Positions 45,292-55,152 of a DNA stretch of 64,000 bases are shown here, piece after piece (positions within the stretch are counted from its first letter, which is position 1; every line of letters begins with the position of its first letter). The notes under the pieces are model-generated. The model saw only the letters and a list, made by a program, of their open reading frames with translations, was not told where the DNA came from and made no database searches. A program made the position numbers and the translations under genes. Origin of the DNA: Candidatus Micrarchaeota archaeon (lineage in GTDB: Archaea; Micrarchaeota; Micrarchaeia; Micrarchaeales; CABMGC01); NCBI GenBank assembly GCA_021792235.1, contig JAJYVC010000001.1:752-64751 (forward strand), in the 5' to 3' direction.

Positions 45292-46007
45292 TTCAATACC
45301 TCTTGCTTTTCCATCTTACCATCCTTTATGTATATTATCTTATCGCAAAACTTGGTCGTATCTGGGTTGTGTGTTACCATCACTATGGTGACGTTGCCTG
45401 ACTTGCTTATACTTCCCAGCAGTTTTATCACCTCCTCGCCGGATTTGGTGTCCAGGTTGCCGGTAGGCTCGTCAGCCAGTATTAGTGCGGGGTTGTTGAC
45501 CAGAGCCCTCGCAACTGCAACCCTCTGCTGTTCTCCACCGCTAAGCTGCGTAGGGTTGTTCTTGAGCCTGTGGCCTATCCCTAGGCGCGTAAGGAGTTCA
45601 TCTGCTCTTCGCTTCCTCTCCTCTTCGGGAGCCGAGTTCACCATCAACGGCAACTCTACATTCTCCTCAGCGTTAATCCCAGGTATCAGGTTGAATGCCT
45701 GGAACACGAAGCCAAGCTCCCTGTTCCTGAACTCTGCCAGCTCATTACCGTTCATTCCAGAGGTCGCCACGCCGTCTATGTACACTTCGCCGTGACTGGG
45801 CTTATCTATCGTGCCTAGAATATTCATAAGTGTCGACTTTCCGCTTCCCGAAGGCCCAACTATCGCGGCGAATTCGCCTCGCTTCAGTGAGAAGGATATG
45901 TGCTCAAGAGCCCGCACCTCGACCTCTCCAGATTTGTATATTTTCGATACGTTATCCAACCTTACTGAATATTCGTTTCCGTGATGCTCGGGTCTTGATT
46001 TTGGCAT
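45288..46007 (-). CDS. ABC transporter ATP-binding protein (MacB/LolD-type)
   Basis: GPSGSGKSTLMN, LSGGEQQRVAVARAL, LILADEPTGNLD. Confidence 0.9.
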   Translation of the reverse strand: MPKSRPEHHGNEYSVRLDNVSKIYKSGEVEVRALEHISFSLKRGEFAAIVGPSGSGKSTLMNILGTIDKPSHGEVYIDGVATSGMNGNELAEFRNRELGFVFQAFNLIPGINAEENVELPLMVNSAPEEERKRRADELLTRLGIGHRLKNNPTQLSGGEQQRVAVARALVNNPALILADEPTGNLDTKSGEEVIKLLGSISKSGNVTIVMVTHNPDTTKFCDKIIYIKDGKMEKQEVLK

Positions 46008-46152
46008 TTATACTCCTTGCACTACGTGCTATCAAATAGTTTAACTATAAACTATCCTCATTATAAAGTATTAAATCTTTCCGAATCGTTCGGTTTGGAT
46101 GGTCCAATTAGATTATTAATGTTTAATGGCCTAGCATATCTGGTCAGATTGC

Positions 46153-47439
46153 ATGATTCTCAAGAATCTGGAGCCAAATATAGATGACAAGGAGTTTCAG
46201 TTCGTCTATCCAAGGTATGGTGGCCAGTCACTTCCCAATGTGGTCTCAACTGCCATGCGGACATTGGGCGTTGACAATGAGAAGACTCCCATAAACCACG
46301 AGTTTTACAAGGATCACATTGATCTCGACAGGATAGAGAAGGTTGTTTTCGTTGTTCTTGATGGATTCGGATACAGGATGTGGGCAGACTTCGGCAACGA
46401 TACAGGATTCTTCGGAAGGATAGCCAAGCGCGGTCTACTCATGCCGATAACATCCATATTCCCATCCACTACTGCAGCAGCGATAACTTCAATAAACACG
46501 GGCTTGACTCCGCTCGAACACGGCCTTCCCGAATGGATAATATACATGAGGGAAATAGGAATGATAATTAATACGCTCCCTTTTACTGCATACATGACGG
46601 AGAAATATACCAGCCTGTCGGATCTTGGTGTTGACTCGAAGATATTGTATGATGGCAAGACGGTGTACGAGAAGCTCAACGAGGAGGGGATCACAAGCCA
46701 CACGTTCACGGCCAGGAACATAGCGGAGAGCGCCTACACTCGGCTCATAAAGCGCGGCAGCCATGGCAATCCTTACGTGCATCCCAGCGATGCGGTAGTA
46801 AAACTAAGGCGGGTGCTGGAGTCGGAGCGCAAGAAGACGTACGTAAACTTGTACATGGATAATATAGATTCTGCGACCCACACATACGGTCCGTTCACTG
46901 AGGAGTCGCGTGCTGAAATAGGTGCGATATCCCAGGTATTCAAGATGCAGCTTCTTGACAAGATAGACAAAAGCGCAGCAAAGGATACTCTTGTGCTGGT
47001 CACTGCAGATCATGGTCATACTTCAATAAATCCGTCCAAGACGACTTTCATGAATGATGATCGCAAGCTTGCAGGCTTCCTTGCATCCGACAGGGGCAGC
47101 AAGATACTTCCCACAGGAAGTCCAAGAGGTGTCTTCCTACACATAAACGAATCGGATATTGAAAGAGCATATGCACACCTCAGCGAGAAATTCGATGGCA
47201 CTGCGAGGATAATGCGCACAAGAGATGCGGTGAGTGCGGGACTTTTCGGCAGCGGTAAACCTCACAAAAAGTTCGGTGAAAGGGCCGGAGACATTCTTAT
47301 ACTACCCAAAGACCACGAATCGATATGGTATGAGCATGTGAAGGGCAGGAAGCAGAAATATATAGGCGTTCACGGTGGGCTCAGCAAGAACGAGATGCTT
47401 ATCCCTCTTGGCATGGCAAGATTGTCTGACCTGCTCTGA
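46153..47439 (+). CDS. alkaline-phosphatase-superfamily phosphodiesterase/nucleotide pyrophosphatase-like protein
   Basis: VVFVVLDGFGYRMW, IFPSTTAAAITSINTGLTPLEHG (Thr nucleophile region), VTADHGH. Confidence 0.75.
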   Translation: MILKNLEPNIDDKEFQFVYPRYGGQSLPNVVSTAMRTLGVDNEKTPINHEFYKDHIDLDRIEKVVFVVLDGFGYRMWADFGNDTGFFGRIAKRGLLMPITSIFPSTTAAAITSINTGLTPLEHGLPEWIIYMREIGMIINTLPFTAYMTEKYTSLSDLGVDSKILYDGKTVYEKLNEEGITSHTFTARNIAESAYTRLIKRGSHGNPYVHPSDAVVKLRRVLESERKKTYVNLYMDNIDSATHTYGPFTEESRAEIGAISQVFKMQLLDKIDKSAAKDTLVLVTADHGHTSINPSKTTFMNDDRKLAGFLASDRGSKILPTGSPRGVFLHINESDIERAYAHLSEKFDGTARIMRTRDAVSAGLFGSGKPHKKFGERAGDILILPKDHESIWYEHVKGRKQKYIGVHGGLSKNEMLIPLGMARLSDLL

Positions 47440-47518
47440 ACGTGTGTTTTGCATCTGGAAATGTATAAATAGGAGTCCCTATCTCTATAACGTAACGGCT
47501 GTTGAAAAGGTGTAGTCC

Positions 47519-48301
47519 ATGCGTCTATCAGCAAAGCTCATGCAATCTGCAATCCACAATGCAGTTGTGCAGAAGGAGATGCCTGTGCAGGAGCACAGCG
47601 ACGACGCAATGACGCTGAGCCAGCTAAAGCAGAGGCTCGAATACTTCTGCCTGGAAAGAGGCTGGAACAAAGGCAATGCGGGAAGCCCTGACCACATCTC
47701 TGCAGCAATAATTACTGAGGCCAACGAACTGCTAGGCTGCGTAAAACATCTGCCCAAGAGGAAGCAAGCCCGTCTGGTCAGGAATCCAATAAACGGCATA
47801 GAGGCAAGGAAGGAGATTGCGGACGTGCTGTGGTTCTCGCTTGTTATGGCGGAGAGACACGGGATAAGTCTTTCGCAGTCGCTATTCGGCGATGGGTTTG
47901 CTTCTATTGGAAACGGAGGAGCCATCCACGTTACTGATGAACACACTAAAATATCTGACCTTAAGAGCCTTGCATTGGTCAGGTACGGGAAGAGATATCT
48001 GAGGCTATCTCCTAAGGATCTGGCAGTAGAGATGATATCGGAAGCATCAGCGCTCTTCGAGCACTTCAGGTTCAGGTCGCCGGAGCAGATAAAGGAGATG
48101 CTGTCAGACGATGCCAAGATGATGAGTATCAGAAAGAGCCTTGGCAAAGTGTTCGGCCTTATCCTAATATATTCTGCAAACAATAGCATAGACCTGAGCA
48201 GCGCCGTACTTGAAAAACTGTCAGAGAACGAGGAAAGGTACTCTGCAGTGCAGCTCAACGGAACAGGATACCAAAAGTACACTGAGATAAGGAGGAAGTA
48301 G
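47519..48301 (+). CDS. tandem MazG-like nucleoside triphosphate pyrophosphohydrolase (second repeat degenerate)
   Basis: First repeat: LSQLKQRLEYFCLERGW...ITEANELL...EIADVLWFSLVMAERHGISL. Second repeat: EMISEASALFEHF...SAVLEKLSENEERY, which lacks part of the acidic motif. Confidence 0.7.
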   Translation: MRLSAKLMQSAIHNAVVQKEMPVQEHSDDAMTLSQLKQRLEYFCLERGWNKGNAGSPDHISAAIITEANELLGCVKHLPKRKQARLVRNPINGIEARKEIADVLWFSLVMAERHGISLSQSLFGDGFASIGNGGAIHVTDEHTKISDLKSLALVRYGKRYLRLSPKDLAVEMISEASALFEHFRFRSPEQIKEMLSDDAKMMSIRKSLGKVFGLILIYSANNSIDLSSAVLEKLSENEERYSAVQLNGTGYQKYTEIRRK

Positions 48302-48332
48302 CTGTAGCTCGCGTCTTCCTTGAGCTGTCGAA

Positions 48333-49181
48333 TTAGCGCCTGATTGACGTATAAAGTCCTTGCAGATCTTTTGCTACAACATCTGCACCGCTCCTTACGA
48401 GATCCTTCAAGCTGCCCATGCCACTAAGCACCCCTACTGCTGTCACTCCAGCCCTGGCTGCCATTGTTATGTCTATCGCGGCATCCCCGATATATCCTGC
48501 ATCCTGCCTATCCACAGAAAATTTCTGCATTGTGCGATCGAAGCTTTCGGGATTCGGCTTCTTCGCGTCACACACTATCGTGAATGAGGAAAGCTCTGCT
48601 CTGGAGAAACCACCAGCGCTGAGGTCCCTGAGCACCGTGTCCCTGGCATGGGTGTTTGTCAGTATTGCTATCCTTCCTTGATATAGCTCTGCAAGACCCA
48701 TCAGCGCATCCTTCGCACCAGGTAGGGGTCTCACGTACTGCGCAGCCTCGGCGGAATTGAAGAATGATCCATTATCCCATGAGTATATGTCCTTCGCTAG
48801 GTCTACGTCGCGTGCGTCAGTGTGGCGGGCAATAATACTGTCCAGCTTCGCTTCTGCATCAACGTCATTGAGAATATCCATCACTTTGTCATTTCTAACT
48901 TCCGTATCCAGCTGGGAGTACATTCGGTCGAATGCCAATAACGCCAGTATGGGCATTATGCCCCCGTTGTATCTTGCGCTCACTCCGCCCAAGGCGTAAT
49001 TCGTCCGTGAATCATATGTGAACTCCATTCCATACCACTCGTATCCCTTGCGCCTGTTCATGTAGATGAGCTCTGACGGATCCACAATAACGCCGTCCTT
49101 GTCCACGCCGAACATCTTCTTAGCGGCAATTAACTCCAGTGCATCTTGCCTCCTTCCCTTAGAGTATATTATATTCTGCAT
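48333..49181 (-). CDS. HAD-superfamily hydrolase with large cap insertion
   Basis: Motif I FGVDKDGVIVD, motif II ILTNT, motif IV YIGDAAIDITMAARAG. Confidence 0.7.
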   Translation of the reverse strand: MQNIIYSKGRRQDALELIAAKKMFGVDKDGVIVDPSELIYMNRRKGYEWYGMEFTYDSRTNYALGGVSARYNGGIMPILALLAFDRMYSQLDTEVRNDKVMDILNDVDAEAKLDSIIARHTDARDVDLAKDIYSWDNGSFFNSAEAAQYVRPLPGAKDALMGLAELYQGRIAILTNTHARDTVLRDLSAGGFSRAELSSFTIVCDAKKPNPESFDRTMQKFSVDRQDAGYIGDAAIDITMAARAGVTAVGVLSGMGSLKDLVRSGADVVAKDLQGLYTSIRR

Positions 49182-49185
49182 CTTA

Positions 49186-51240
49186 TCACATCCTAAGCCT
49201 GTGCCTCTGCCTTGCTATGACATTCACACCCGGTTCCTTGCTGAGAGATACAAGTCCTTCATTTACATTCTCGAATAATTTGTTTATGTCAAGCACAGTC
49301 TCATGGCGCCTATGTCTCACAAGTCCGAACAGGGGGTTGCTCCTGCTTTTTATATGCCTATGCAGATCTGCTGCCAGGCCATCTGTCAGCTCGGTCACAC
49401 TCCTCTCCCGTATGAGCCTGCCTAGCTCAACCAGGTTTACTGCGAGCAATTGCTGGTCCTTCTCATCCATCATCCTGAATAGCTCGGCGCAATCAAGCCT
49501 GCCCTTTGACATGTCTCCAAATTTAACCAGATTGGCTGCGAGTTTCTCCAATTTAGAAAATCCAGCTTCATCTAGCCCATGCCTCGATACCATTGCATCA
49601 TAACCCTCTCTCATGCCGAGAAGGTATATAGAGTAGGCTCTGTCAAACATCGGGTAATTGCCTTTCAGCACTTCATCGAAAAGCCTGTCATATCTTGTAT
49701 TAACGCCATCTATGCTCTTAGTTACTATAAGGTCGCCAAGCAGTGCTTCTCTCACGACCCTGTCATCAACTGCGAGATCCGAGAACAGCTCTGCTATCCT
49801 GTCGTTGTTGAGCCTATCCGCCCTTTTCAGCTCAACGACAATCCCTTTCCTTATGTGGTCGGGCTCTGTATATCGTCCCTTCTCAGCAGGCATTGCCGCA
49901 GCCTTAACTGCGTCTATGACTGCTTCATCATCACAGTATTTCATTATCAGCAGATAGCCCCTTATCTTGAGGTCATCTATCCCACTATCTATTAGCTTCT
50001 TTGCGAATTCACTGACCTCTTGAGAGGTTCTATCCTTAAGTGACACATATTTGGCCACGCTCACCATGACGGACTGACTTCCCATCCTGTCAAGCTCGTT
50101 GTCAAGTAGCCTGCTTGCAAGTTCAAGATCCAGTGCATGCCTTCCGTATCCAAGCTGGCCTACTGCCGACATCCTCACTATATTGCTAGGATCGTCGAAT
50201 GCTGACTGGATTATGCGGTCCCTGTACTTATCAAAGTCTACTGCCGCCATGGCATAAATCGCATTTGCCCTTACGCCGGCTGTTTTGCTCATGCGGGCTT
50301 CATCCAGTATATGGCTGTCAGTGCGCGTAAACAGGCATAGCTCCAATGCAGATATCATGAGTTCCTCGGATCCAGATCCTAGAGTATACAGCTTCTCCGC
50401 GTCATCTTTTATCTCTGCACGGCTTATCCTGCCCTTCTCCACAGACCCGGTCTGTATCAGTATGTGGTCTCTTACTGATAGTGCGTAAGGGTCGCTCTTG
50501 TCCAGCGCGATGGCCCTATCTGCAAGGTCCCTTATCTTATCATCGTTGTCTACTATCCTAAGAATTGTAGCTATGACTTCAGGCATTATGCATTTGCCGA
50601 AGTAGTATGGATGTATCGACTGGGGCCAGTATGCCCTTATCGATTCGGATACATGAAGCGGCTTTATACCATTCCTTATGAGGTAGTAGTTTGCGAACAG
50701 GCGCCCCGTCCTTCCATCCCCGTCCTCGAACGGATGCAACTTCGTAAAGTTGGCGTTGAATTCAGCAACGTTCAGCAGGCTCATGGATGTAGACTCATAT
50801 GACACATTCAGCATGTCAACAGCATCTTTGAAAGCCTCGGGAACCTCATCTGCATGCACAGATATGTATGGTCCCACACTGAGTTGATATCTTCTGAATC
50901 CATCTAGGTATTTGCCCTGACTGTATACTCCTGTGAGCAGGGCTCTTCTTACTTCTACAATATCATCTGGTCGTATTACGTGTCCGTTTATGCCTTTCAT
51001 GAGTTTAAGCACAGCATCCAGGTTCATTATCTCTCCGTAATCGGAAAGAGGTCCATCCTTGCCCTCGAATTTACCTTTGTAGAGCAGATCCTCTGTTGCA
51101 GATTCGTGGCCATTGTTCACATTTGAATAAAATACTGTTTTTATCAGGCTATCCCCGAGTGCAACGTCCTTATCGGCATCAAGCTTTACCAACTCTGGTA
51201 TGCCAAGCCTATCGAGTACGCTAGCGTATTTGTCTTCCAT
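49186..51240 (-). CDS. Fic-domain protein fused to C-terminal HEAT/armadillo-like repeats
   Basis: Fic motif HPFEDGDGRTGR (GDG in place of canonical GNG). C-terminal ~400 aa of helical repeats (DPSNIVRMSAVGQLG...). ATG 51240 is preceded by a GGGGG box; the track start is GTG 51258. Confidence 0.85.
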   Translation of the reverse strand: MEDKYASVLDRLGIPELVKLDADKDVALGDSLIKTVFYSNVNNGHESATEDLLYKGKFEGKDGPLSDYGEIMNLDAVLKLMKGINGHVIRPDDIVEVRRALLTGVYSQGKYLDGFRRYQLSVGPYISVHADEVPEAFKDAVDMLNVSYESTSMSLLNVAEFNANFTKLHPFEDGDGRTGRLFANYYLIRNGIKPLHVSESIRAYWPQSIHPYYFGKCIMPEVIATILRIVDNDDKIRDLADRAIALDKSDPYALSVRDHILIQTGSVEKGRISRAEIKDDAEKLYTLGSGSEELMISALELCLFTRTDSHILDEARMSKTAGVRANAIYAMAAVDFDKYRDRIIQSAFDDPSNIVRMSAVGQLGYGRHALDLELASRLLDNELDRMGSQSVMVSVAKYVSLKDRTSQEVSEFAKKLIDSGIDDLKIRGYLLIMKYCDDEAVIDAVKAAAMPAEKGRYTEPDHIRKGIVVELKRADRLNNDRIAELFSDLAVDDRVVREALLGDLIVTKSIDGVNTRYDRLFDEVLKGNYPMFDRAYSIYLLGMREGYDAMVSRHGLDEAGFSKLEKLAANLVKFGDMSKGRLDCAELFRMMDEKDQQLLAVNLVELGRLIRERSVTELTDGLAADLHRHIKSRSNPLFGLVRHRRHETVLDINKLFENVNEGLVSLSKEPGVNVIARQRHRLRM

Positions 51241-51434
51241 ATGCTTCCCCCGTTGCACTTATCAGTGCGTTCTTCTTATCAAGAATACGGCAACGCATGA
51301 TGTGGCACGTATGTCCGCGGCAATATACTTTATATCTGCTTCCTGTACTCTCTGCAGGCCACAACGAAACTATACTGGGCCCGTACGCATTGAGTGAACT
51401 TGAAAAAATCAGCAAAGCTGCAGGACTACTGCCA

Positions 51435-51527
51435 AGCACAGCTAGAGTCATATATTTTAGTGCACTAGCTGAGGCTATCAGAAAGTACATATAATATTAT
51501 GCAGCACCTTCTTTATATACTTTGCTG
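51435..51527. repeat. 93-nt intergenic repeat, copy A (upstream of the Fic gene)
   Basis: 83/93 ungapped identity to 52622-52714; the distal 47 nt differ at one position. Contains palindrome tagtgcacta (51458-51467) next to a TATA-like box. Confidence 0.65.
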
Positions 51528-51658
51528 TTCATTTCTGGCGCCTCAGGCTATGCAGCCACGTGATTGAAAACTGCCAAGAAAACTGAAAACCTCAATGCAG
51601 GAACACTTAAGGAAACAAAATACCACAAGCACATTGGGATAAGGATAAAGTGGCAGTC

Positions 51659-52609
51659 TTACTTCTTTAATGCCTGCCTGAGCACTTCCGTTTCTGCCTT
51701 AATCTGGTCTGCGTCCAATACTGGTGGCATATTTCCCCTCTCATAAATATCCAGGTACATTTCGTCATCTCTTCCAGAGTACCTGTCGTTTCTTGATCTC
51801 GGTATCAGATTCACATGTAGCCTATCTATAGGTCTGCCTTCATATTCTCCAGTCTGCATTGACGTTATGTACGACCTGCTTTCGTCACCGTACACCTTGA
51901 GCAGCAGATTCATTATCTTCGAGTATGTTATTGCAAAATCCATTCGTTCCTCGTCGTCAAGTTCCATGAAGTCAGAAACATCCCTCTTTGGCACAAGCAG
52001 GGCCTGGCCTCTTATCACCGGCTTTGGGTGGTACATCGCAACGAAGTGACTTGATTCATAAAAGATGTTTGCCGAGAGAGCCGCATCAATTTCTTTGCGC
52101 GCTACCGGCATTGATCTAGGTGCCTGCTTCGGATTCTGCAGGCCGCACCTGAGCATTGCAAGGTCGTTTTCAATGTCATCAAGGAATGGTCTGTCAACGT
52201 TCTGCAGGTTCTTCGCGTAAATTCTTTCGTACTCAGTGCCCCCGCCAGCTGCGGAAACTTTCCTTCTTGGTATGAGATGCACATGGAAATGGTTCACTGT
52301 TCTTCCTGAGAATTCGCCGCTGCGTATCTTCAGGTCGTATGTGCGCTCACCATTGTTGTAGGTATCTAGTATGACTGGCAGCACCGTGCTTATCATGTCA
52401 AAAAGCTCTTTGACTTCTGCAGGCTGCAGGTCTAGGAGGCCAAGTATGTGCCTCCTTGTTATTATAAGGGAATGGCCGTCAGTGAGCGCTTTGCTGTTGT
52501 ACAGTGCTACAAAGTGCTCTCCTTCGTGCACAGATTGCTTTCTGAGGACCTGCTTCATACAGAACGGATCCTTATGAGCCGTCCTTTCTGCTAGGGCAGT
52601 GGAGGTCAT
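51659..52609 (-). CDS. tandem HIT-domain protein (GalT/Ap-phosphorylase-like architecture)
   Basis: Domain 1 has the full histidine triad NHFHVHLIPR. Domain 2 has DRLHVNLIPR, with only the central His kept. Confidence 0.85.
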   Translation of the reverse strand: MTSTALAERTAHKDPFCMKQVLRKQSVHEGEHFVALYNSKALTDGHSLIITRRHILGLLDLQPAEVKELFDMISTVLPVILDTYNNGERTYDLKIRSGEFSGRTVNHFHVHLIPRRKVSAAGGGTEYERIYAKNLQNVDRPFLDDIENDLAMLRCGLQNPKQAPRSMPVARKEIDAALSANIFYESSHFVAMYHPKPVIRGQALLVPKRDVSDFMELDDEERMDFAITYSKIMNLLLKVYGDESRSYITSMQTGEYEGRPIDRLHVNLIPRSRNDRYSGRDDEMYLDIYERGNMPPVLDADQIKAETEVLRQALKK

Positions 52610-52621
52610 AATCCATCACCC

Positions 52622-52714
52622 AGCACAGCTGGAGGTGCATATTTAAGTGCACTAACTGATGCAATCAGAAAGTACATATAATATTATACAGCACCTTCTT
52701 TATATACTTTGCTG
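52622..52714. repeat. 93-nt intergenic repeat, copy B (immediately upstream of the tandem-HIT gene)
   Basis: On the minus strand it supplies TTAAATAT about 29 nt before ATG 52609, plus a GGTGA box. Palindrome agtgcact at 52646-52653. Confidence 0.65.
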
Positions 52715-52749
52715 CAATCTTCTGGCAAAAGCTTATAAAGCAGCGTCAA

Positions 52750-53448
52750 TCAGGTCTGGTCATCGAAGACTCTCTTGCTTCTTATGTCAGAGCTTGCATC
52801 CTCCATATCCTTTATCGTATCGACGCCCTTGAAGTATGCGTCAGGGAACTTAAGGCCCATCAGTCTGCCTGTCTTGGACAGTTCCACAAATGTCGTGCTC
52901 TCGAGATTACCAGAATCAGGCAGGTGCTCGAATATCCCTTTTGACATGAGATAGACTCCTGAATTCATCCAGTATTCTGGTAGTATTGGCTTCTCCTCGA
53001 ACCTAACTATTCGGTCTCCTTCAAGGTGCGTTATGCCGTAGGTACTCCTAAGAGGCACAAGTGCTATTGCAGCTTTGCATCCGTTTAGCCTCATCCTGCT
53101 CACCTCTATGTTGGTGACATTGTCGCCATTGAGCATGAGAAATGCGTCTTCGTCTTCAAGGAGGTGGTGCGCATTCTTCAGTGCTCCACCAGTCCCAAGC
53201 TGTGTCTTCTCCTCGGAATATTCTATCTCTATGCCAAGAGTGCCCTTTCTATGGTCGAAATAGTCGATTACCTTGTCCTTCAGGTAGCCGACAAGCAACA
53301 CGAAAGATGTTATCCCGTGGGATTTGAGCCACCTTATCTGCCACTCTATTATAGGCCTTCCGGCTACCTCCACAAGTGGTTTCGGCACCGTATCTGTAAG
53401 AGGCCTCAGCCGCTTACCGTATCCGCCTGCGAGTATCACTGCCTTCAT
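52750..53448 (-). CDS. sugar-1-phosphate nucleotidyltransferase (RmlA/ManC/GlmU-N-like)
   Basis: MKAVILAGGYGKRLRPLTDTVPKPL signature and GTGGAL. The track start is 53466; ATG 53448 is more typical. Confidence 0.85.
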   Translation of the reverse strand: MKAVILAGGYGKRLRPLTDTVPKPLVEVAGRPIIEWQIRWLKSHGITSFVLLVGYLKDKVIDYFDHRKGTLGIEIEYSEEKTQLGTGGALKNAHHLLEDEDAFLMLNGDNVTNIEVSRMRLNGCKAAIALVPLRSTYGITHLEGDRIVRFEEKPILPEYWMNSGVYLMSKGIFEHLPDSGNLESTTFVELSKTGRLMGLKFPDAYFKGVDTIKDMEDASSDIRSKRVFDDQT

Positions 53449-53452
53449 AAAG

Positions 53453-54067
53453 TCATTCCCTTGCACTATCTATGAATTCCGATAATATCTTTATAAATTC
53501 CTTAGGTCTGCCGATATAGCACGCATGTCCTGCTCCCTTGATTATCGCTACTATGCCATTTATGGATTTTATTGCATCCTCATTGAGATATGCCGGTGCC
53601 ACATCATCCTCGCTGCCCCACACTGCAAGAACCTTGGCTCTTATCCTGTTCATAGATATGCTCTTGAGGCTTACTGGAGCAACGATGATGATCCCCGAAA
53701 GCCTGCCGCCAGCAGCCTCAGCGAACTTCAGTGCCGCATGGCAGCTAGCGCTAGATCCTAGTATGAACAACTTGCCCTTTACCGATGAAGAGAGTGCATC
53801 AAGGAACGATACGAGATCATTCTCGCCCATAGCAAGCCTGTTTACACTGTGCGGAAAACCCGGCACATCTACGGCAACCACGCTCAAATCCATATCCCCC
53901 AGCGCGCTGACAAGGCCTATCCTGTCCCACACCATCGAGTTGAAGCTGTAGCCATGCATCATGACAATTGTATCGTCACCTCCAGCCGCATAGTAGTATG
54001 TCAGCTTTATGCCCTTGTGATCAAGGCTCCTCTTCTCCAAGGTCTCCCTTAATATTAAATAATGCAT
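53453..54067 (-). CDS. alpha/beta-hydrolase
   Basis: VMMHGYSF... and a nucleophile-elbow-like ILGSSASCH. About 200 aa. Confidence 0.6.
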   Translation of the reverse strand: MHYLILRETLEKRSLDHKGIKLTYYYAAGGDDTIVMMHGYSFNSMVWDRIGLVSALGDMDLSVVAVDVPGFPHSVNRLAMGENDLVSFLDALSSSVKGKLFILGSSASCHAALKFAEAAGGRLSGIIIVAPVSLKSISMNRIRAKVLAVWGSEDDVAPAYLNEDAIKSINGIVAIIKGAGHACYIGRPKEFIKILSEFIDSARE

Positions 54068-54093
54068 ATAATGTGTATATTAATAGGTTTAAC

Positions 54094-55152
54094 ATGGACA
54101 TAGAGTCAAAGATCAAGTTGATAAAATCGGAACCACTTGAAGAGGTGATAACCGAAAACGATCTAAAGGAGCTGCTCGAAACCAATCCTCATCCAAAGCA
54201 CTACATCGGAATAGAGATAAGTGGGATGCCGCACATAGGTCACATACTCGTCGCAGGAAAGAAGATAAACGATCTGGCAAAGGCAGGCGCGCAGACGCAG
54301 GTACTGCTTGCAGACTGGCACACTGTGGCCAACAACAAGCTTGGAGGAGACTGGGAGAGGATAGCAAAGGCGTCAAAGTTCTACCGGGAACTGTTTAATG
54401 CTTTCTGCCCAGACACGAAGGTTGTGCTGGGATCCGATTTATATAAGGGCAATGACGAATACTGGAAGCTCGTAGTCCAGATAGCTAGAAGGACAACGAT
54501 AGCCAGGGCGACCCGCACTCTTGTGATACAGGGCCGTAGCGAGAAGGAGACACTTCATGTATCTCAGTATCTTTATCCGATGATGCAGGCTGCAGACATA
54601 CACGCGCTTGACGTTGACATACCTCACGCAGGTATGGATCAGAGGAGGATACACGTGCTTGCAAAAGAGGTCTTCAGTGAGATGAGGATGAAGAAGATAG
54701 TCCCCATACATCATCATCTGCTTCCCAGTCTCCTAGAACCGCCAAAAATCTCCGGTGATGCGCAGAAGGAGGAGATAGTGGCATCAATGAAGATGAGCAA
54801 ATCAAGGCCCGGATCGGCAATACCCATACTTGCTGACAGCGCAGAAGTGAGTTCGATACTCAAGACTGCATGGTGTCCGGAGGGAGTTGTCGAGGAGAAT
54901 CCGGTACTACAGCTGTGCAGGTACGTGATATTTCCAATAAACGGAATGCTGGAGATAGAGCGGCCTGCAAAGTATGGCGGAAATGTGAACTACGGCGCAT
55001 ACGCGGAGCTCGAATCAGATTTCAGAGAAAGAAAGCTTCACCCAGCAGATCTCAAGGTAGCAGTATCAAGCACACTATCATCGATAATGGGGCCGATATA
55101 CGGGAAATTTGGCCACAGGAAGGCCGAGATCTTAGACATGTTCAAGCAGTGA
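54094..55152 (+). CDS. tyrS: tyrosyl-tRNA synthetase (archaeal type)
   Basis: HIGH-type PHIGH and KMSKS. C-terminal AWCPEGVVEENPVLQLCRY...RPAKYGGNVNYGAYAELESDF..KLHPADLK parallels archaeal TyrRS. ATG 54094 is internal to track ORF 53968. Confidence 0.85.
   Translation: MDIESKIKLIKSEPLEEVITENDLKELLETNPHPKHYIGIEISGMPHIGHILVAGKKINDLAKAGAQTQVLLADWHTVANNKLGGDWERIAKASKFYRELFNAFCPDTKVVLGSDLYKGNDEYWKLVVQIARRTTIARATRTLVIQGRSEKETLHVSQYLYPMMQAADIHALDVDIPHAGMDQRRIHVLAKEVFSEMRMKKIVPIHHHLLPSLLEPPKISGDAQKEEIVASMKMSKSRPGSAIPILADSAEVSSILKTAWCPEGVVEENPVLQLCRYVIFPINGMLEIERPAKYGGNVNYGAYAELESDFRERKLHPADLKVAVSSTLSSIMGPIYGKFGHRKAEILDMFKQ

Follow-up and report, generated by a model that had tools for sequence, protein, structure and literature searches.

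The 64,000-nt window analyzed here, the whole stretch of DNA from a Candidatus Micrarchaeota archaeon, a tiny symbiont, harbors seven closely spaced genes within 8 kb, two of which are preceded by copies of a duplicated element (Table 1). Genes, strands, spacers, and domains agree with a preliminary description of this DNA, except for the MazG call. The 4-nt spacer claimed between the Fic-HEAT and HAD1 genes was confirmed at positions 49182 to 49185. The hydrolase and nucleotidyltransferase (NTase) genes are also 4 nt apart, and the HAD1 and MazG-like genes are convergent, with 31 nt between them. The statement that every product is a nucleotidyl or phosphoryl enzyme is wrong for the alpha/beta-hydrolase.

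Table 1. Genes and duplicated elements of the 8-kb stretch (positions in the window)
Feature	Positions	Strand	Domain matches and remarks
NPP (Phosphodiest), 428 aa	46153-47439	+	PF01663, 105 bits
MazG-like ORF, 260 aa	47519-48301	+	sub-threshold matches
HAD1, 282 aa	48333-49181	-	Pfam Hydrolase, HAD_2, Hydrolase_like
Fic-HEAT, 684 aa	49186-51240	-	PF02661, 43 bits; ATG start
Tandem HIT, 316 aa	51659-52609	-	Pfam HIT, two stretches
Sugar-1-P NTase, 232 aa	52750-53448	-	PF00483, 103 bits
Alpha/beta-hydrolase, 204 aa	53453-54067	-	Pfam Abhydrolase_6, Hydrolase_4
Duplicated element, copy A	52619-52726	-	108 nt, directly upstream of HIT
Duplicated element, copy B	51432-51539	-	190-300 nt upstream of Fic start

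Fic-HEAT, the start codon of which was fixed through alignment with orthologues, consists of an N-terminal FICD-like Fic domain (~230 aa; Fic motif HPFEDGDGRTGR) and a C-terminal HEAT/alphaRep solenoid (~450 aa). HEAT_2 was matched by 34 of the 42 family members, and the family profile matched alphaRep/HEAT chains in the PDB. Foldseek analysis of the AF2 model (pLDDT 91.9) revealed similarity to Fic domains and to the PP2A-A solenoid, the top match being a mycobacterial Fic protein bound to CDP (7cb8). By sequence, the Fic domain is most similar to FICD/HYPE, the metazoan class II AMPylase/deAMPylase of BiP (E = 1e-27 with the family profile; ~200 residues). This match takes in the N-terminal inhibitory-helix region, and the FICD motif IEGN is aligned. 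Furthermore, all or nearly all of the 42 members have H169, R177, and R180. Fic-HEAT is predicted to be a FICD-like enzyme that retains the catalytic His and both Arg residues of the motif. Both proteins combine a single Fic domain with an alpha-helical repeat domain, which selects the substrate in FICD. However, the repeats of FICD are N-terminal TPRs, while those of Fic-HEAT are HEAT/alphaRep-like and C-terminal, and, unlike FICD, Fic-HEAT is archaeal and cytoplasmic, and its gene shares an operon with that of a HAD phosphatase.

A second difference from FICD concerns the active site. In the window protein, SNVNNG stands in place of the canonical inhibitory motif. Inspection of the alignment columns of the 42 members revealed SNVNNG, SSVNNG, SNTNSG, SNGNDS, and TNIKNA in its subclade, with Asn, Ser, or Asp in place of the inhibitory Glu, and SSxIEGN in distant members; the motif register is uncertain in intermediate members, of which P0007 and P0010 may keep the Glu. 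In FICD, the corresponding E234 both auto-inhibits AMPylation and catalyzes deAMPylation (PMC12409994). The catalytic loop of the window protein reads GDG instead of the consensus GNG (Asp for Asn), which may count against the enzymatic reading proposed below; GDG, SDG, TDG, and GVG occur across the family. Fic-HEAT proteins come from MAGs labelled Micrarchaeota or Marsarchaeota and form ~46 clusters at 50% identity.

HAD1 is a predicted haloacid-dehalogenase-type phosphatase with a large cap (~135 aa) between motifs I and II. In six orthologues, D27-K-D29-G, T175-N, K208, and G-D233-x-x-x-D237 are invariant.

The product of the outermost plus-strand gene matches, by profile, ENPP1-7, the Xanthomonas (Xac) NPP, and snake-venom phosphodiesterase (PDE), and its closest structures are those of ENPP proteins, Xac NPP, and snake-venom PDE. 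Its AF2 model (pLDDT 94.6) matched ENPP5, ENPP6, ENPP3, Xac NPP, and PhnA in Foldseek, and the fold is the same as that of the known enzymes (TM 0.6-0.7), although sequence identity to known NPP/ENPP proteins is only 14-18%. Seven candidate active-site residues do not vary among 32 homologues: D70, T107, D239, H243, D286, H287, and H407. From comparison with the motifs of known NPPs, we take T107 to be the nucleophile and the other six to be metal ligands. Sequence and model indicate that the protein is a cytoplasmic NPP-type phosphodiesterase/pyrophosphatase of the alkaline-phosphatase superfamily. In contrast to known NPP/ENPP proteins, it has no accessory domains and, by eye, no signal peptide or transmembrane segment, and it comes from a large, uncharacterized, mostly Fic-free archaeal family of ~430-aa proteins. 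This family forms 502 clusters, some of them from MAGs labelled Bathyarchaeota, Thaumarchaeota, and Nitrososphaerota, and is common in archaea in which no Fic-HEAT was found; the single Bathyarchaeota locus examined carries NPP alone. As the family extends far beyond Fic-HEAT, NPP has a job independent of Fic.

In the tandem HIT protein, residues 9-128 match the HIT protein 3imi and residues 181-312 match full-length Fhit (E = 5.5e-12) in PDB profile searches. The first domain has the canonical HxHxHxx motif (HFHVHLI). The second reads RLHVNLI, differing from the Fhit branch in the loss of the third His, while its orthologues have RMHIHLI. Both domains match Fhit or bacterial HIT proteins and are, as judged from sequence, Fhit-like and of the dinucleoside-polyphosphate hydrolase type. 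Unlike in Fhit, two domains are fused, which reproduces the usual HIT homodimer in covalent form.

The MazG-like protein had been called a tandem MazG. Two weakly MazG/all-alpha NTP-pyrophosphohydrolase-like halves are indeed discernible, but every match is sub-threshold, so the call was not fully confirmed: the whole protein scored 25.3 bits, below the cut-off of 27, its halves reached ~15 bits each against MazG, PRA-PH, or MazG-like models, and DCTPP1 matched the C-terminal half with E = 0.0016. By tblastn (E <= 10), no homologue was detected in other Fic-HEAT loci. The unannotated genes for 250-254-aa proteins in loci L005 and L059 are unrelated to that of the window's MazG-like protein. 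The best NCBIfam models for the NTase, all below cut-off, were the archaeal GlmU N-terminal domain, HddC, and MurU. The NTase gene is probably cotranscribed with that of the alpha/beta-hydrolase.

The duplicated element reported upstream of the HIT and Fic genes is real. Its copies are 85% identical over 108 nt, or 88.5% over 96 nt (blastn E = 5e-31), and they contain an identical 24-nt core that is absent elsewhere in the window. Copy A provides a TATA-like box (AAAGTATATAAAG) and a leader directly 5' of HIT, with a GGTGAT Shine-Dalgarno-like site and a 23-codon ORF (52606-52677), the TGA of which overlaps the HIT ATG. In copy B, the same small-ORF start opens 89 codons (51221-51490), overlapping the Fic ATG by 20 nt. 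RNA folding was not significant for copy A (z = -1.7) or copy B (z = 0.0), and copy B had no Rfam match. Such a duplicated promoter is not present in L005 or L001, the two related loci checked, and the available strains are all identical. On this sequence evidence, the exact 24-nt duplicate is a putative core promoter common to HIT and Fic in this species.

Gene linkage was compared across 11 distinct Fic-HEAT lineages. An HAD1 orthologue follows Fic-HEAT in six of them, making HAD1 its most conserved partner. It is 37-49% identical and directly downstream in L005, L059, L060, and L061, with junctions from a 20-nt overlap to a 9-nt gap (<=10 nt in all lineages without an inserted gene); in L063, a ROK gene is inserted between the two. 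The Fic-HAD1 pair spans three chromosomal contexts: a TyrRS-FtsZ block (window, L005, and L059), an RNA-polymerase block (L061 and L063), and a proteasome/exosome block (L060). NPP is a recurrent yet facultative neighbor of this pair: an orthologue lies near Fic-HEAT in five of the 11 lineages (46-65% identity in L005, L059, L060, and L061), and all possible orientations relative to Fic occur. The tandem HIT is an occasional neighbor (3/11); its orthologues (48-52% identity) adjoin NPP, in L005 and L060 only, at most two genes from Fic. The association of the NTase is loose, an orthologue being found in the window and one other locus (2/11; L059, 71% identity, 2.2 kb downstream of Fic-HAD1). 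The MazG-like and alpha/beta-hydrolase genes were missing from all other Fic-HEAT loci examined and are lineage-specific neighbors outside the conserved module. The Fic proteins of relatives that keep the rearranged core are only 28-41% identical.

HAD1, NPP, and HIT are absent within 10 kb of Fic in L001 and L057, which belong to the subclade without the canonical motif; therefore, the link between Fic and its partners is not obligatory. None of the three was found at L062, L064, and L065, in which IEGN is intact. Partner genes accompany six of the eight Fic-HEAT genes that have lost the Glu and none of the three with IEGN (one-sided Fisher p ~0.06, calculated by hand). This correlation is less firm because of a 64-aa HAD-like fragment that lies downstream of the IEGN-type Fic in L065 (E = 0.009). 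The uncertain motif register of intermediate members such as P0007 and P0010 also weakens it.

Thus, the linkage proposed in the preliminary description exceeds chance for part of the 8 kb only: the Fic-HAD1 pair was recovered in other genomes and contexts and, more loosely, so were NPP and HIT, but the MazG-like and alpha/beta-hydrolase genes, and largely the NTase, were not. These comparisons show that the conserved core is a two-gene operon of Fic-HEAT and HAD1, 4 nt apart or overlapping in relatives, joined by NPP in roughly half the lineages and by the tandem Fhit-like HIT in roughly a quarter. They also show that the MazG-like and alpha/beta-hydrolase genes and, largely, the NTase gene are neighbors by descent and not accessory components. 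The 8-kb stretch is not a single seven-gene system; Fic-HEAT with HAD1, often NPP, and sometimes the tandem HIT is a functionally grouped core that survives chromosomal rearrangement.

We tentatively read this operon as a system for protein NMPylation with outsourced nucleotide handling and possibly reversal, a reading we consider plausible but far from secure. Because the inhibitory/deAMPylating Glu is replaced in the window's subclade, Fic-HEAT would be constitutively able to catalyze the transfer but unable to remove the mark it makes. It may nucleotidylylate hydroxyl groups of a cytoplasmic protein, with the HEAT solenoid probably picking the target, and the linked enzymes would handle nucleotides around the reaction. 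HAD1, which its large cap suggests to be of the small-molecule type, would clear a small phosphorylated product, e.g., PPi or AMP. NPP would be the most plausible eraser, because it shares the fold and active site of snake-venom PDE, which frees AMP from adenylylated glutamine synthetase (GS-AMP) (PMC12409994); it might restrict the supply of cosubstrate as well. Ap3A and Ap4A would be broken down by the Fhit-like HIT; FICD accepts Ap4A as cosubstrate and AMP donor (PMC10107192). We infer that erasure is more plausibly the work of NPP than of HIT, which more likely controls Ap4A.

Alternatively, NPP, HAD1, HIT, the MazG-like protein, and the NTase could serve housekeeping nucleotide salvage and sanitation in an organism unable to make nucleotides, with Fic-HEAT as a bystander and the linkage due to descent and operon inertia. 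De novo synthesis of nucleotides is lacking in Micrarchaeota (PMC5864196). The window genome has a CTP synthase and an inorganic pyrophosphatase, and L059 has a CTP synthase, with dCMP-deaminase-like, PfkB kinase, and GMP synthase genes between Fic-HAD1 and NPP. The breadth of the NPP family beyond Fic-HEAT and the Fhit-like nature of HIT point in the same direction. Furthermore, part of the conservation is plain synteny, since the window, L005, and L059 all carry the entire TyrRS-HAD2-FtsZ block. However, the overlapping or near-abutting Fic-HAD1 pair is kept in L060, L061, and L063 despite wholly different flanks, NPP accompanies it in L060 and L061, and HAD1 forms an orthologous group separate from that of its neighboring, housekeeping-looking paralogue HAD2 (26% identity). 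We consider this explanation unlikely for the locus as a whole. The coincidental housekeeping cluster already envisaged in the preliminary description holds for the outer genes (MazG-like, alpha/beta-hydrolase, and largely NTase) and is still in contention where NPP and HIT are concerned.

Another explanation is a sugar-nucleotide or phospho-X pathway, for which the recurrence of sugar-activation genes near Fic-HEAT speaks, among them an NTase gene in the window, L059, and L001. Here, a kinase, mutase, or phosphatase and the NTase would make NDP-X, Fic-HEAT would transfer phospho-X or the sugar to a target, and NPP would cleave the phosphodiester so formed. AnkX, which transfers phospho-X from CDP-choline, and AvrB, which transfers a sugar, are analogues. 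In line with this, the top structural match of the Fic model binds CDP, the Fic motif departs from GNG, and HAD1 is weakly similar to beta-phosphoglucomutase-type HADs (E = 1.6e-8, far below cut-off). Moreover, a ROK sugar kinase gene lies between Fic and HAD1 in L063 and another at the end of the L059 locus, and in L057, PGM/PMM, NDP-sugar epimerase/dehydratase, and another Phosphodiest gene are directly upstream of Fic. However, the L057 Phosphodiest is no NPP orthologue, the L001 NTase is a paralogue, being just 27% identical to that of the window, and sugar-nucleotide genes are common everywhere. The Fic domain is also closest to the AMPylase FICD and has both ATP-phosphate-binding Arg residues. 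We regard such a pathway as improbable.

The preliminary description proposed Fic-HEAT as writer and the tandem HIT as eraser, with MazG, HAD, NPP, and NTase as accessories, and this pairing proved to be its weakest link. Although HIT is immediately upstream of Fic in the window, with a duplicated promoter and leader in common, lies no more than two genes away from Fic in L005 and L060, and would complement a Fic protein without the Glu required for self-reversal, it is near Fic in only three of the 11 lineages and adjoins NPP, not Fic, in those two loci. Both of its domains are of the Fhit type (ApnA hydrolases), the second lacks the third His in the window, and the MazG-like and alpha/beta-hydrolase genes are not conserved neighbors. 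HIT enzymes cleave P-N or pyrophosphate links; none is known to cleave the P-O-Tyr/Thr/Ser phosphodiester made by Fic enzymes or to hydrolyze AMP-O-Tyr/Thr/Ser. DeAMPylation is known from FICD/EfFic, SidD, the AR domain of GS-ATase, and RNase Z (PMC12409994, PMC12663964). We consider this model very unlikely.

Hardly credible is a toxin-antitoxin or defense module with Fic-HEAT as a growth-arresting toxin and HAD1 or another neighbor as antidote: class I Fic toxins are kept in check by a small antitoxin encoded next to them, and the Fic domain matches the PADLOC models SoFic and PDC-S04 and HIT matches ThsC, but these matches are generic domain similarity, the trans-inhibitory motif [ST]xxxE[GN] is absent from every HAD1 orthologue aligned, the locus lies among core genes (TyrRS, FtsZ, RNA polymerase, and proteasome), its GC content is ordinary, and no mobile-element genes were called within ~10 kb of Fic in the window genome.

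The arrangement read here as NMPylation with outsourced nucleotide handling resembles the Legionella pairs SidM/DrrA-SidD and AnkX-Lem3, in which the gene of a nucleotidyl or phospho-X transferase adjoins that of a phosphatase/phosphodiesterase-superfamily hydrolase that could reverse its mark; gene adjacency was the first clue for SidD (PMC12409994). However, SidD is PP2C-like and SidM is no Fic enzyme, while the candidates here would be HAD, NPP, and HIT enzymes. Furthermore, the Legionella pairs are secreted effectors, whereas the genes described here belong to the chromosomal core regions of a DPANN archaeon. In summary, the other genes of the stretch are ordinary housekeeping neighbors, and the Fic-HEAT/HAD1 module, often with NPP, is real and previously undescribed.

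The open reading frames between 46153 and 54067 were as laid out in the preliminary description (see the table of features), including the 4-nt spacer between the genes for the Fic protein with a C-terminal HEAT solenoid (Fic-HEAT) and for the HAD phosphatase right after it (HAD1). The alpha/beta-hydrolase and sugar-1-P nucleotidylyltransferase (NTase) genes are also 4 nt apart. Larger gaps separate the NTase gene from that of the tandem HIT protein (140 nt) and the HIT gene from Fic-HEAT (418 nt), which suggests that the minus-strand genes are split into three transcription units. The earlier statement that every product of the region is a nucleotidyl or phosphoryl enzyme is wrong for the alpha/beta-hydrolase. 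As for the proposed tandem MazG protein, the ORF exists on the plus strand, but its assignment is tentative: at 25.3 bits the whole protein stayed below the cut-off of 27, each half reached about 15 bits, and the match to DCTPP1 (E = 0.0016) was likewise sub-threshold. Of the MazG-type metal motif EExxE...ExxD, its N-terminal half by eye retains E..E and E..D, and the C-terminal half seems degenerate. At the other border, the alpha/beta-hydrolase and TyrRS genes start divergently at 54067 and 54094, with just 26 nt in between, and the 3' ends of TyrRS and HAD2, a paralogue of HAD1, converge with a 21-nt overlap (55132-55152), a packing unusually tight if each gene is transcribed independently. 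The sequence comes from a Micrarchaeota metagenome-assembled genome (MAG); the same Fic protein is present on 14 public contigs (e.g., GCA_027339545.1), and the five of them that were retrieved share 99.98% identity or more with the window across the region.

Features of the region between 46153 and 54067
Feature	Position	Strand	Description
NPP-type phosphodiesterase (NPP)	46153-47439	+	428 aa; PF01663, 105 bits
MazG-like protein	47519-48301	+	260 aa; sub-threshold matches only
HAD1 phosphatase	48333-49181	-	282 aa; HAD Pfam families
Fic protein (Fic-HEAT)	49186-51240	-	684 aa; PF02661, 43 bits
Small ORF of repeat copy B	51221-51490	-	89 codons; 20-nt overlap with Fic ATG
Repeat copy B	51432-51539	-	190-300 nt 5' of Fic
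Tandem HIT	51659-52609	-	316 aa; two HIT stretches
Small ORF of repeat copy A	52606-52677	-	23 codons; TGA overlapping HIT ATG (ATGA)
Repeat copy A	52619-52726	-	directly 5' of HIT
Sugar-1-P nucleotidylyltransferase	52750-53448	-	232 aa; PF00483, 103 bits
Alpha/beta-hydrolase	53453-54067	-	204 aa; Abhydrolase_6

The window Fic protein scored 43.3 bits against PF02661 (cut-off 24). When 1.8 billion representatives were searched exhaustively with the family profile (E <= 1e-30), a Fic-HEAT family of 46 clusters emerged, nearly all of 580-720 aa and matched over their full length, whose source organisms, where named, are Micrarchaeota, Micrarchaeia, Micrarchaeales and Micrarchaeaceae and sometimes "Marsarchaeota" MAGs. 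PF02661 was found in all 42 aligned members and HEAT_2 in 34 of them. Compared with solved structures, the family profile matched FICD/HYPE, the metazoan AMPylase/deAMPylase, best over residues ~15-216 (E = 1e-27), and its C-terminal part matched designed alphaRep/HEAT chains (E = 1e-18 to 1e-20). The AlphaFold (AF2) model (pLDDT 91.9, pTM 0.91) resembles the Fic structures 7cb8, 3cuc and 4u0z and the PP2A-A HEAT solenoid, and is all-helical with a solenoid fold from residue 233 onward. A metagenome scan with the family alignment gave 44 loci; by hmmsearch, the Fic proteins of all of them (about 100-530 aa, usually near 340 aa) lack the HEAT region, so that they offer no usable context. A scan of GTDB genomes returned one related locus only, on the contig that carries locus L001, and a profile search from the 42 family members yielded just three proteins, all of them found before.

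Compared with the canonical catalytic motif HxFx(D/E)GNGRxxR, the window motif HPFEDGDGRTGR retains His, both Arg residues and the acidic residue, and has Asp instead of Asn in the GNG loop. Across the family, H169, G176, R177 and R180 show little or no variation, and the Asn position is occupied by N, D or V. The inhibitory-helix motif in cis, (S/T)xxxE(G/N), is not matched in the window protein, where the corresponding S39-N-V-N-N43-G44 has Asn in place of Glu. Close relatives carry Asn, Ser or Asp at this position, the motifs of the window subclade (SNVNNG, SSVNNG, SNTNSG, SNGNDS and TNIKNA) having all lost the Glu. Distant family members retain a class II inhibitory motif, SSxIEGN, which aligns with the FICD sequence AIEGN containing E234. 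In FICD, this residue blocks AMPylation and serves as the base for deAMPylation, and the E234G variant is a hyperactive AMPylase (PMC12409994). By analogy, since the FICD-type Glu is lost in its subclade, the window Fic protein would be a competent transferase unable to reverse its own mark.

The gene contexts of ten further family members were compared with the window, giving eleven lineages of the 46 Fic-HEAT clusters (see the table of loci), and orthology of the neighbors was assessed by tblastn with the window proteins. Orthologues of HAD1 were detected at five other loci (37-49% identity), of NPP at four (46-65%), of HIT at two (48-52%) and of the NTase at one (71%; the NTase of L001 has just 27%). 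No homologue of the MazG-like protein or the alpha/beta-hydrolase was found at the other Fic-HEAT loci, even at E <= 10. Linkage across genomes, which the preliminary description had left to be checked, thus held for HAD1, less often for NPP and HIT, and not at all for the MazG-like protein and the alpha/beta-hydrolase. HAD1 directly follows Fic-HEAT in the window and in L005, L059, L060 and L061, the two genes overlapping by as much as 20 nt or standing no more than 9 nt apart, so that wherever they are adjacent, stop and start overlap or lie within 10 nt of each other. In L063, a ROK gene stands between them, and HAD1 is missing near Fic-HEAT in L001, L057, L062, L064 and L065. Since the pair is kept in three flanking contexts, inherited synteny alone does not explain it. 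We conclude that Fic-HEAT and HAD1 form a conserved operon, and a functional coupling of the two is probable. The orientation of NPP relative to the pair is convergent, divergent or co-directional. We further conclude that NPP is a frequent and HIT an occasional associate, the other genes being neighbors by descent.

Gene contexts of Fic-HEAT loci, with identity of the Fic-HEAT protein to that of the window
Locus	Flanking context	Fic-HEAT and neighbors
Window (P0001)	TyrRS-HAD2-FtsZ	HAD1, HIT, NTase, hydrolase; NPP and MazG-like convergent
L005 (P0002; 41%)	TyrRS-HAD2-FtsZ	HIT, NPP(-), Fic-HAD1
L059 (P0004; 38%)	TyrRS-HAD2-FtsZ	Fic-HAD1, deaminase-like, NTase, PfkB, GuaA, unknown, NPP(-)
L060 (P0005; 39%)	Upstream proteasome/exosome, downstream ParA/Cdc6	Fic-HAD1, NPP(-), HIT
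L061 (P0009; 30%)	Upstream RNA polymerase A''	Fic-HAD1-NPP, single strand
L063 (P0007; 32%)	Upstream RNA polymerase A''	Fic-ROK-HAD1
L001 (P0003; 37%)	Upstream pyruvate-dehydrogenase-type genes	Fic, then paralogous NTase
L057 (P0006; 31%)	Upstream ThrRS, IS605-type transposase, sulfate-activation-like genes	Different Phosphodiest, PGM/PMM, epimerase 5' of Fic
L062, L064, L065 (P0011, P0031, P0020; IEGN-type)	Various	HAD1, NPP, HIT, NTase etc. all absent

Several of these loci hold further genes of note. Unannotated genes for proteins of 250-254 aa in L005 and L059 were considered as diverged MazG-like genes and rejected, as they have no similarity to the MazG-like protein; two of them resemble membrane proteins by eye. 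In L065 (2812-3721), an IEGN-intact Fic-HEAT gene is followed on its 3' side by a Pol-beta/MNT-type nucleotidyltransferase gene (GSx10DxD) and a 64-aa ORF. The ORF of 231 aa after Fic is not the N terminus of a split HAD1, as it carries the Pol-beta/MNT-type motif and has no HAD1 match by hhalign. The 64-aa ORF, the only one there resembling HAD, aligns with HAD1 motifs III-IV (E = 0.009) and, on this similarity, may be a decayed HAD1; if so, the Fic-HAD pairing would be older than the loss of the inhibitory Glu. A co-directional row of genes 5' of Fic-HEAT in L057 (3705-9668) encodes a PAPS-reductase-like protein, an EF-Tu-type GTPase (CysN-like), a Phosphodiest protein of 475 aa that is no NPP orthologue, PGM/PMM and an NDP-sugar epimerase/dehydratase; the row resembles a cluster for the activation of sugar or sulfate. 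On the 3' side of the same Fic gene, two Laminin_G_3 surface proteins of very large size are encoded. In L064 (4721-7312, a Micrarchaeales MAG), SufB with an intein (Intein_splicing and LAGLIDADG Pfam domains) is encoded two genes 5' of Fic-HEAT. Finally, in the otherwise different loci L001 (12967-15145) and L061 (8457-10640), the opposite strand carries, after the module, a gene for an M20/M28 peptidase and one for an unannotated protein of 344 aa; the two 344-aa proteins have no BLAST similarity at E <= 0.01.

Family score, residues and fold place NPP in the NPP branch of PF01663 (alkaline-phosphatase superfamily). Seven residues do not vary among 32 homologues: T107, which we take by motif comparison to be the nucleophile, and D70, D239, H243, D286, H287 and H407, presumably the six metal ligands. 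The AF2 model (pLDDT 94.6) found its closest folds by Foldseek in ENPP5, ENPP6, ENPP3, the Xanthomonas (Xac) NPP and cobra/snake-venom phosphodiesterase (PDE), with E values of 1e-14 to 1e-17, and in phosphonoacetate hydrolase. The NPP family comprises 502 clusters (E <= 1e-10), with MAG labels including Marsarchaeota, Bathyarchaeota, Thaumarchaeota and Nitrososphaerota. Since NPP stands alone in the one Bathyarchaeota genome examined, it must have a Fic-independent role.

This wide occurrence of NPP outside Fic-HEAT genomes would fit nucleotide-salvage housekeeping with no connection to Fic, as would the interleaved deaminase-like, PfkB and GuaA genes in L059 and the lack of de novo nucleotide synthesis in Micrarchaeota (PMC5864196). 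The persistence of the Fic-HAD1 pair through rearrangements speaks against this explanation, which we regard as rather unlikely, if the strongest of the competitors. An NDP-sugar or phospho-X transfer pathway would account for the recurrence of ROK, NTase, PGM/PMM and epimerase genes beside Fic-HEAT; these neighbors, however, are not orthologous from locus to locus, which makes such a pathway improbable.

The HIT protein scored 92 bits in Pfam over two stretches. Both of its domains are Fhit-like, and full-length Fhit aligns with residues 181-312. Domain 1 carries the HxHxHxx motif of HIT enzymes as HFHVHLI. In domain 2 (residues about 262-268), the window protein reads RLHVNLI and both orthologues RMHIHLI, so that in this lineage alone the triad no longer has its third His. 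Enzymes of the Fhit branch hydrolyze Ap3A and Ap4A. FICD can use Ap4A as an AMP donor (PMC10107192).

A duplicated element upstream of HIT and Fic, reported in the preliminary description, was confirmed as a 108-nt direct repeat with 85% identity (88.5% over 96 nt, E = 5e-31). Its 24-nt core, GCAAAGTATATAAAGAAGGTGCTG, is the same in both copies, occurs nowhere else in the window and holds a TATA-box-like sequence. In each copy, a small ORF beginning MYFLIAS(V/A)SALKY starts ~22 nt after the TATA-like box, a spacing compatible with leaderless upstream ORFs; the small ORFs may act in this way, with translational coupling to the genes that they overlap. A codon-position bias that would speak for translation of the small ORFs was not significant: by our own count, 6 of 11 differences between the copies fall in third positions (~3.7 expected). 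No structured RNA was recognized in the duplicated leader, with no Rfam match in 45900-54300 and no significant fold. The repeat was not found in L005 or L001, and comparison of strains was uninformative, the five retrieved contigs being nearly identical to the window. For this species alone, the repeat argues that HIT is co-expressed with Fic-HAD1.

In favor of the original proposal of Fic and HIT as a writer/eraser pair stand their adjacency in the window and the common promoter. A conserved linkage of the two genes, however, was not recovered: HIT lies near Fic-HEAT in only 3 of the 11 lineages, and in 2 of these 3 it adjoins NPP rather than Fic. Given this low conservation and the chemistry of HIT enzymes, we consider the pair very unlikely.

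HAD1 scored above the cut-off for HAD Pfam families and far under it for every NCBIfam equivalog model. All four HAD motifs (I, DxDx[TV]; II, S/T; III, K; IV, GDxxxD) are present as D27-K-D29-G-V, T175, K208 and G-D233-A-A-I-D237, and do not vary among six orthologues. Between motifs I and II lies a large cap (~135 aa); capped members of the superfamily act on small-molecule rather than protein substrates. In class I Fic toxin-antitoxin systems (VbhT/VbhA), the adjacent partner provides the inhibitory (S/T)xxxE(G/N) helix in trans. HAD1 does not: [ST]xxxE[GN] is absent from all six orthologues checked, and a 282-aa enzyme is not a small antitoxin, so HAD1 was rejected as a class I Fic antitoxin. 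A toxin-antitoxin or defense module, suggested by PADLOC matches at the generic domain level only, is thus most improbable, also in view of the core-genome setting.

Taken together, the comparisons show a conserved operon, the loss of the FICD-type Glu, and catalytic residues that are intact in Fic (His and both Arg), HAD1, NPP and HIT domain 1. We tentatively favor, at somewhat less than even confidence, a core Fic-HEAT/HAD1 operon with outsourced nucleotide handling and reversal. Fic-HEAT would nucleotidylylate a hydroxyl group of a cytoplasmic target picked by the HEAT solenoid, and separate enzymes would take care of reversal and of the nucleotides. NPP would be the best candidate eraser, because the bond to be cleaved is a phosphodiester to a nucleoside 5'-phosphate, the type of bond that NPPs cleave, and because snake-venom PDE, a close structural match, strips AMP from glutamine synthetase. 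This PDE is the classical reagent for AMP removal from adenylylated glutamine synthetase (PMC12409994), and the putative cleavage of protein-O-AMP by NPP is proposed by analogy with it. HAD1 might clear a small phosphorylated product, e.g., PPi or AMP, and HIT might limit Ap3A and Ap4A. The specific roles assigned to the partner enzymes are doubtful. The boldest version, a divided labor of AMPylation, appears unlikely: here, an archaeal FICD-like enzyme would have lost its reversal Glu and then become genetically coupled to separate hydrolases, NPP-family enzymes would be a new class of deAMPylases, and a capped HAD and a Fhit-like hydrolase would control the products and ATP/Ap4A.

Literature searches returned no description of a Fic-HEAT family, of an archaeal FICD-like enzyme with partner hydrolases or of a Fic-HAD operon. 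Each component is a member of a known superfamily; what appears to be new is the architecture, together with the conserved partners and the lost regulatory Glu. Fic enzymes have been studied thoroughly in bacteria and animals and hardly at all in Archaea. Few AMPylation erasers are known, and their discovery is ongoing, as exemplified by RNase Z in 2025 (PMC12663964). With the FICD reversal Glu absent and phosphodiesterase and phosphatase neighbor genes conserved, the Fic-HEAT subclade offers a test case for whether NPP and HAD enzymes deAMPylate and whether Ap4A-degrading enzymes gate Fic. It also represents a candidate regulatory system in Micrarchaeota, which have ~1-Mb genomes and depend on other archaea. 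If the unlikely divided labor of AMPylation proved true, Archaea would have their first described AMPylation cycle, located in genome-reduced DPANN symbionts, and the HEAT solenoid might even be directed at a protein of the host or one related to symbiosis.
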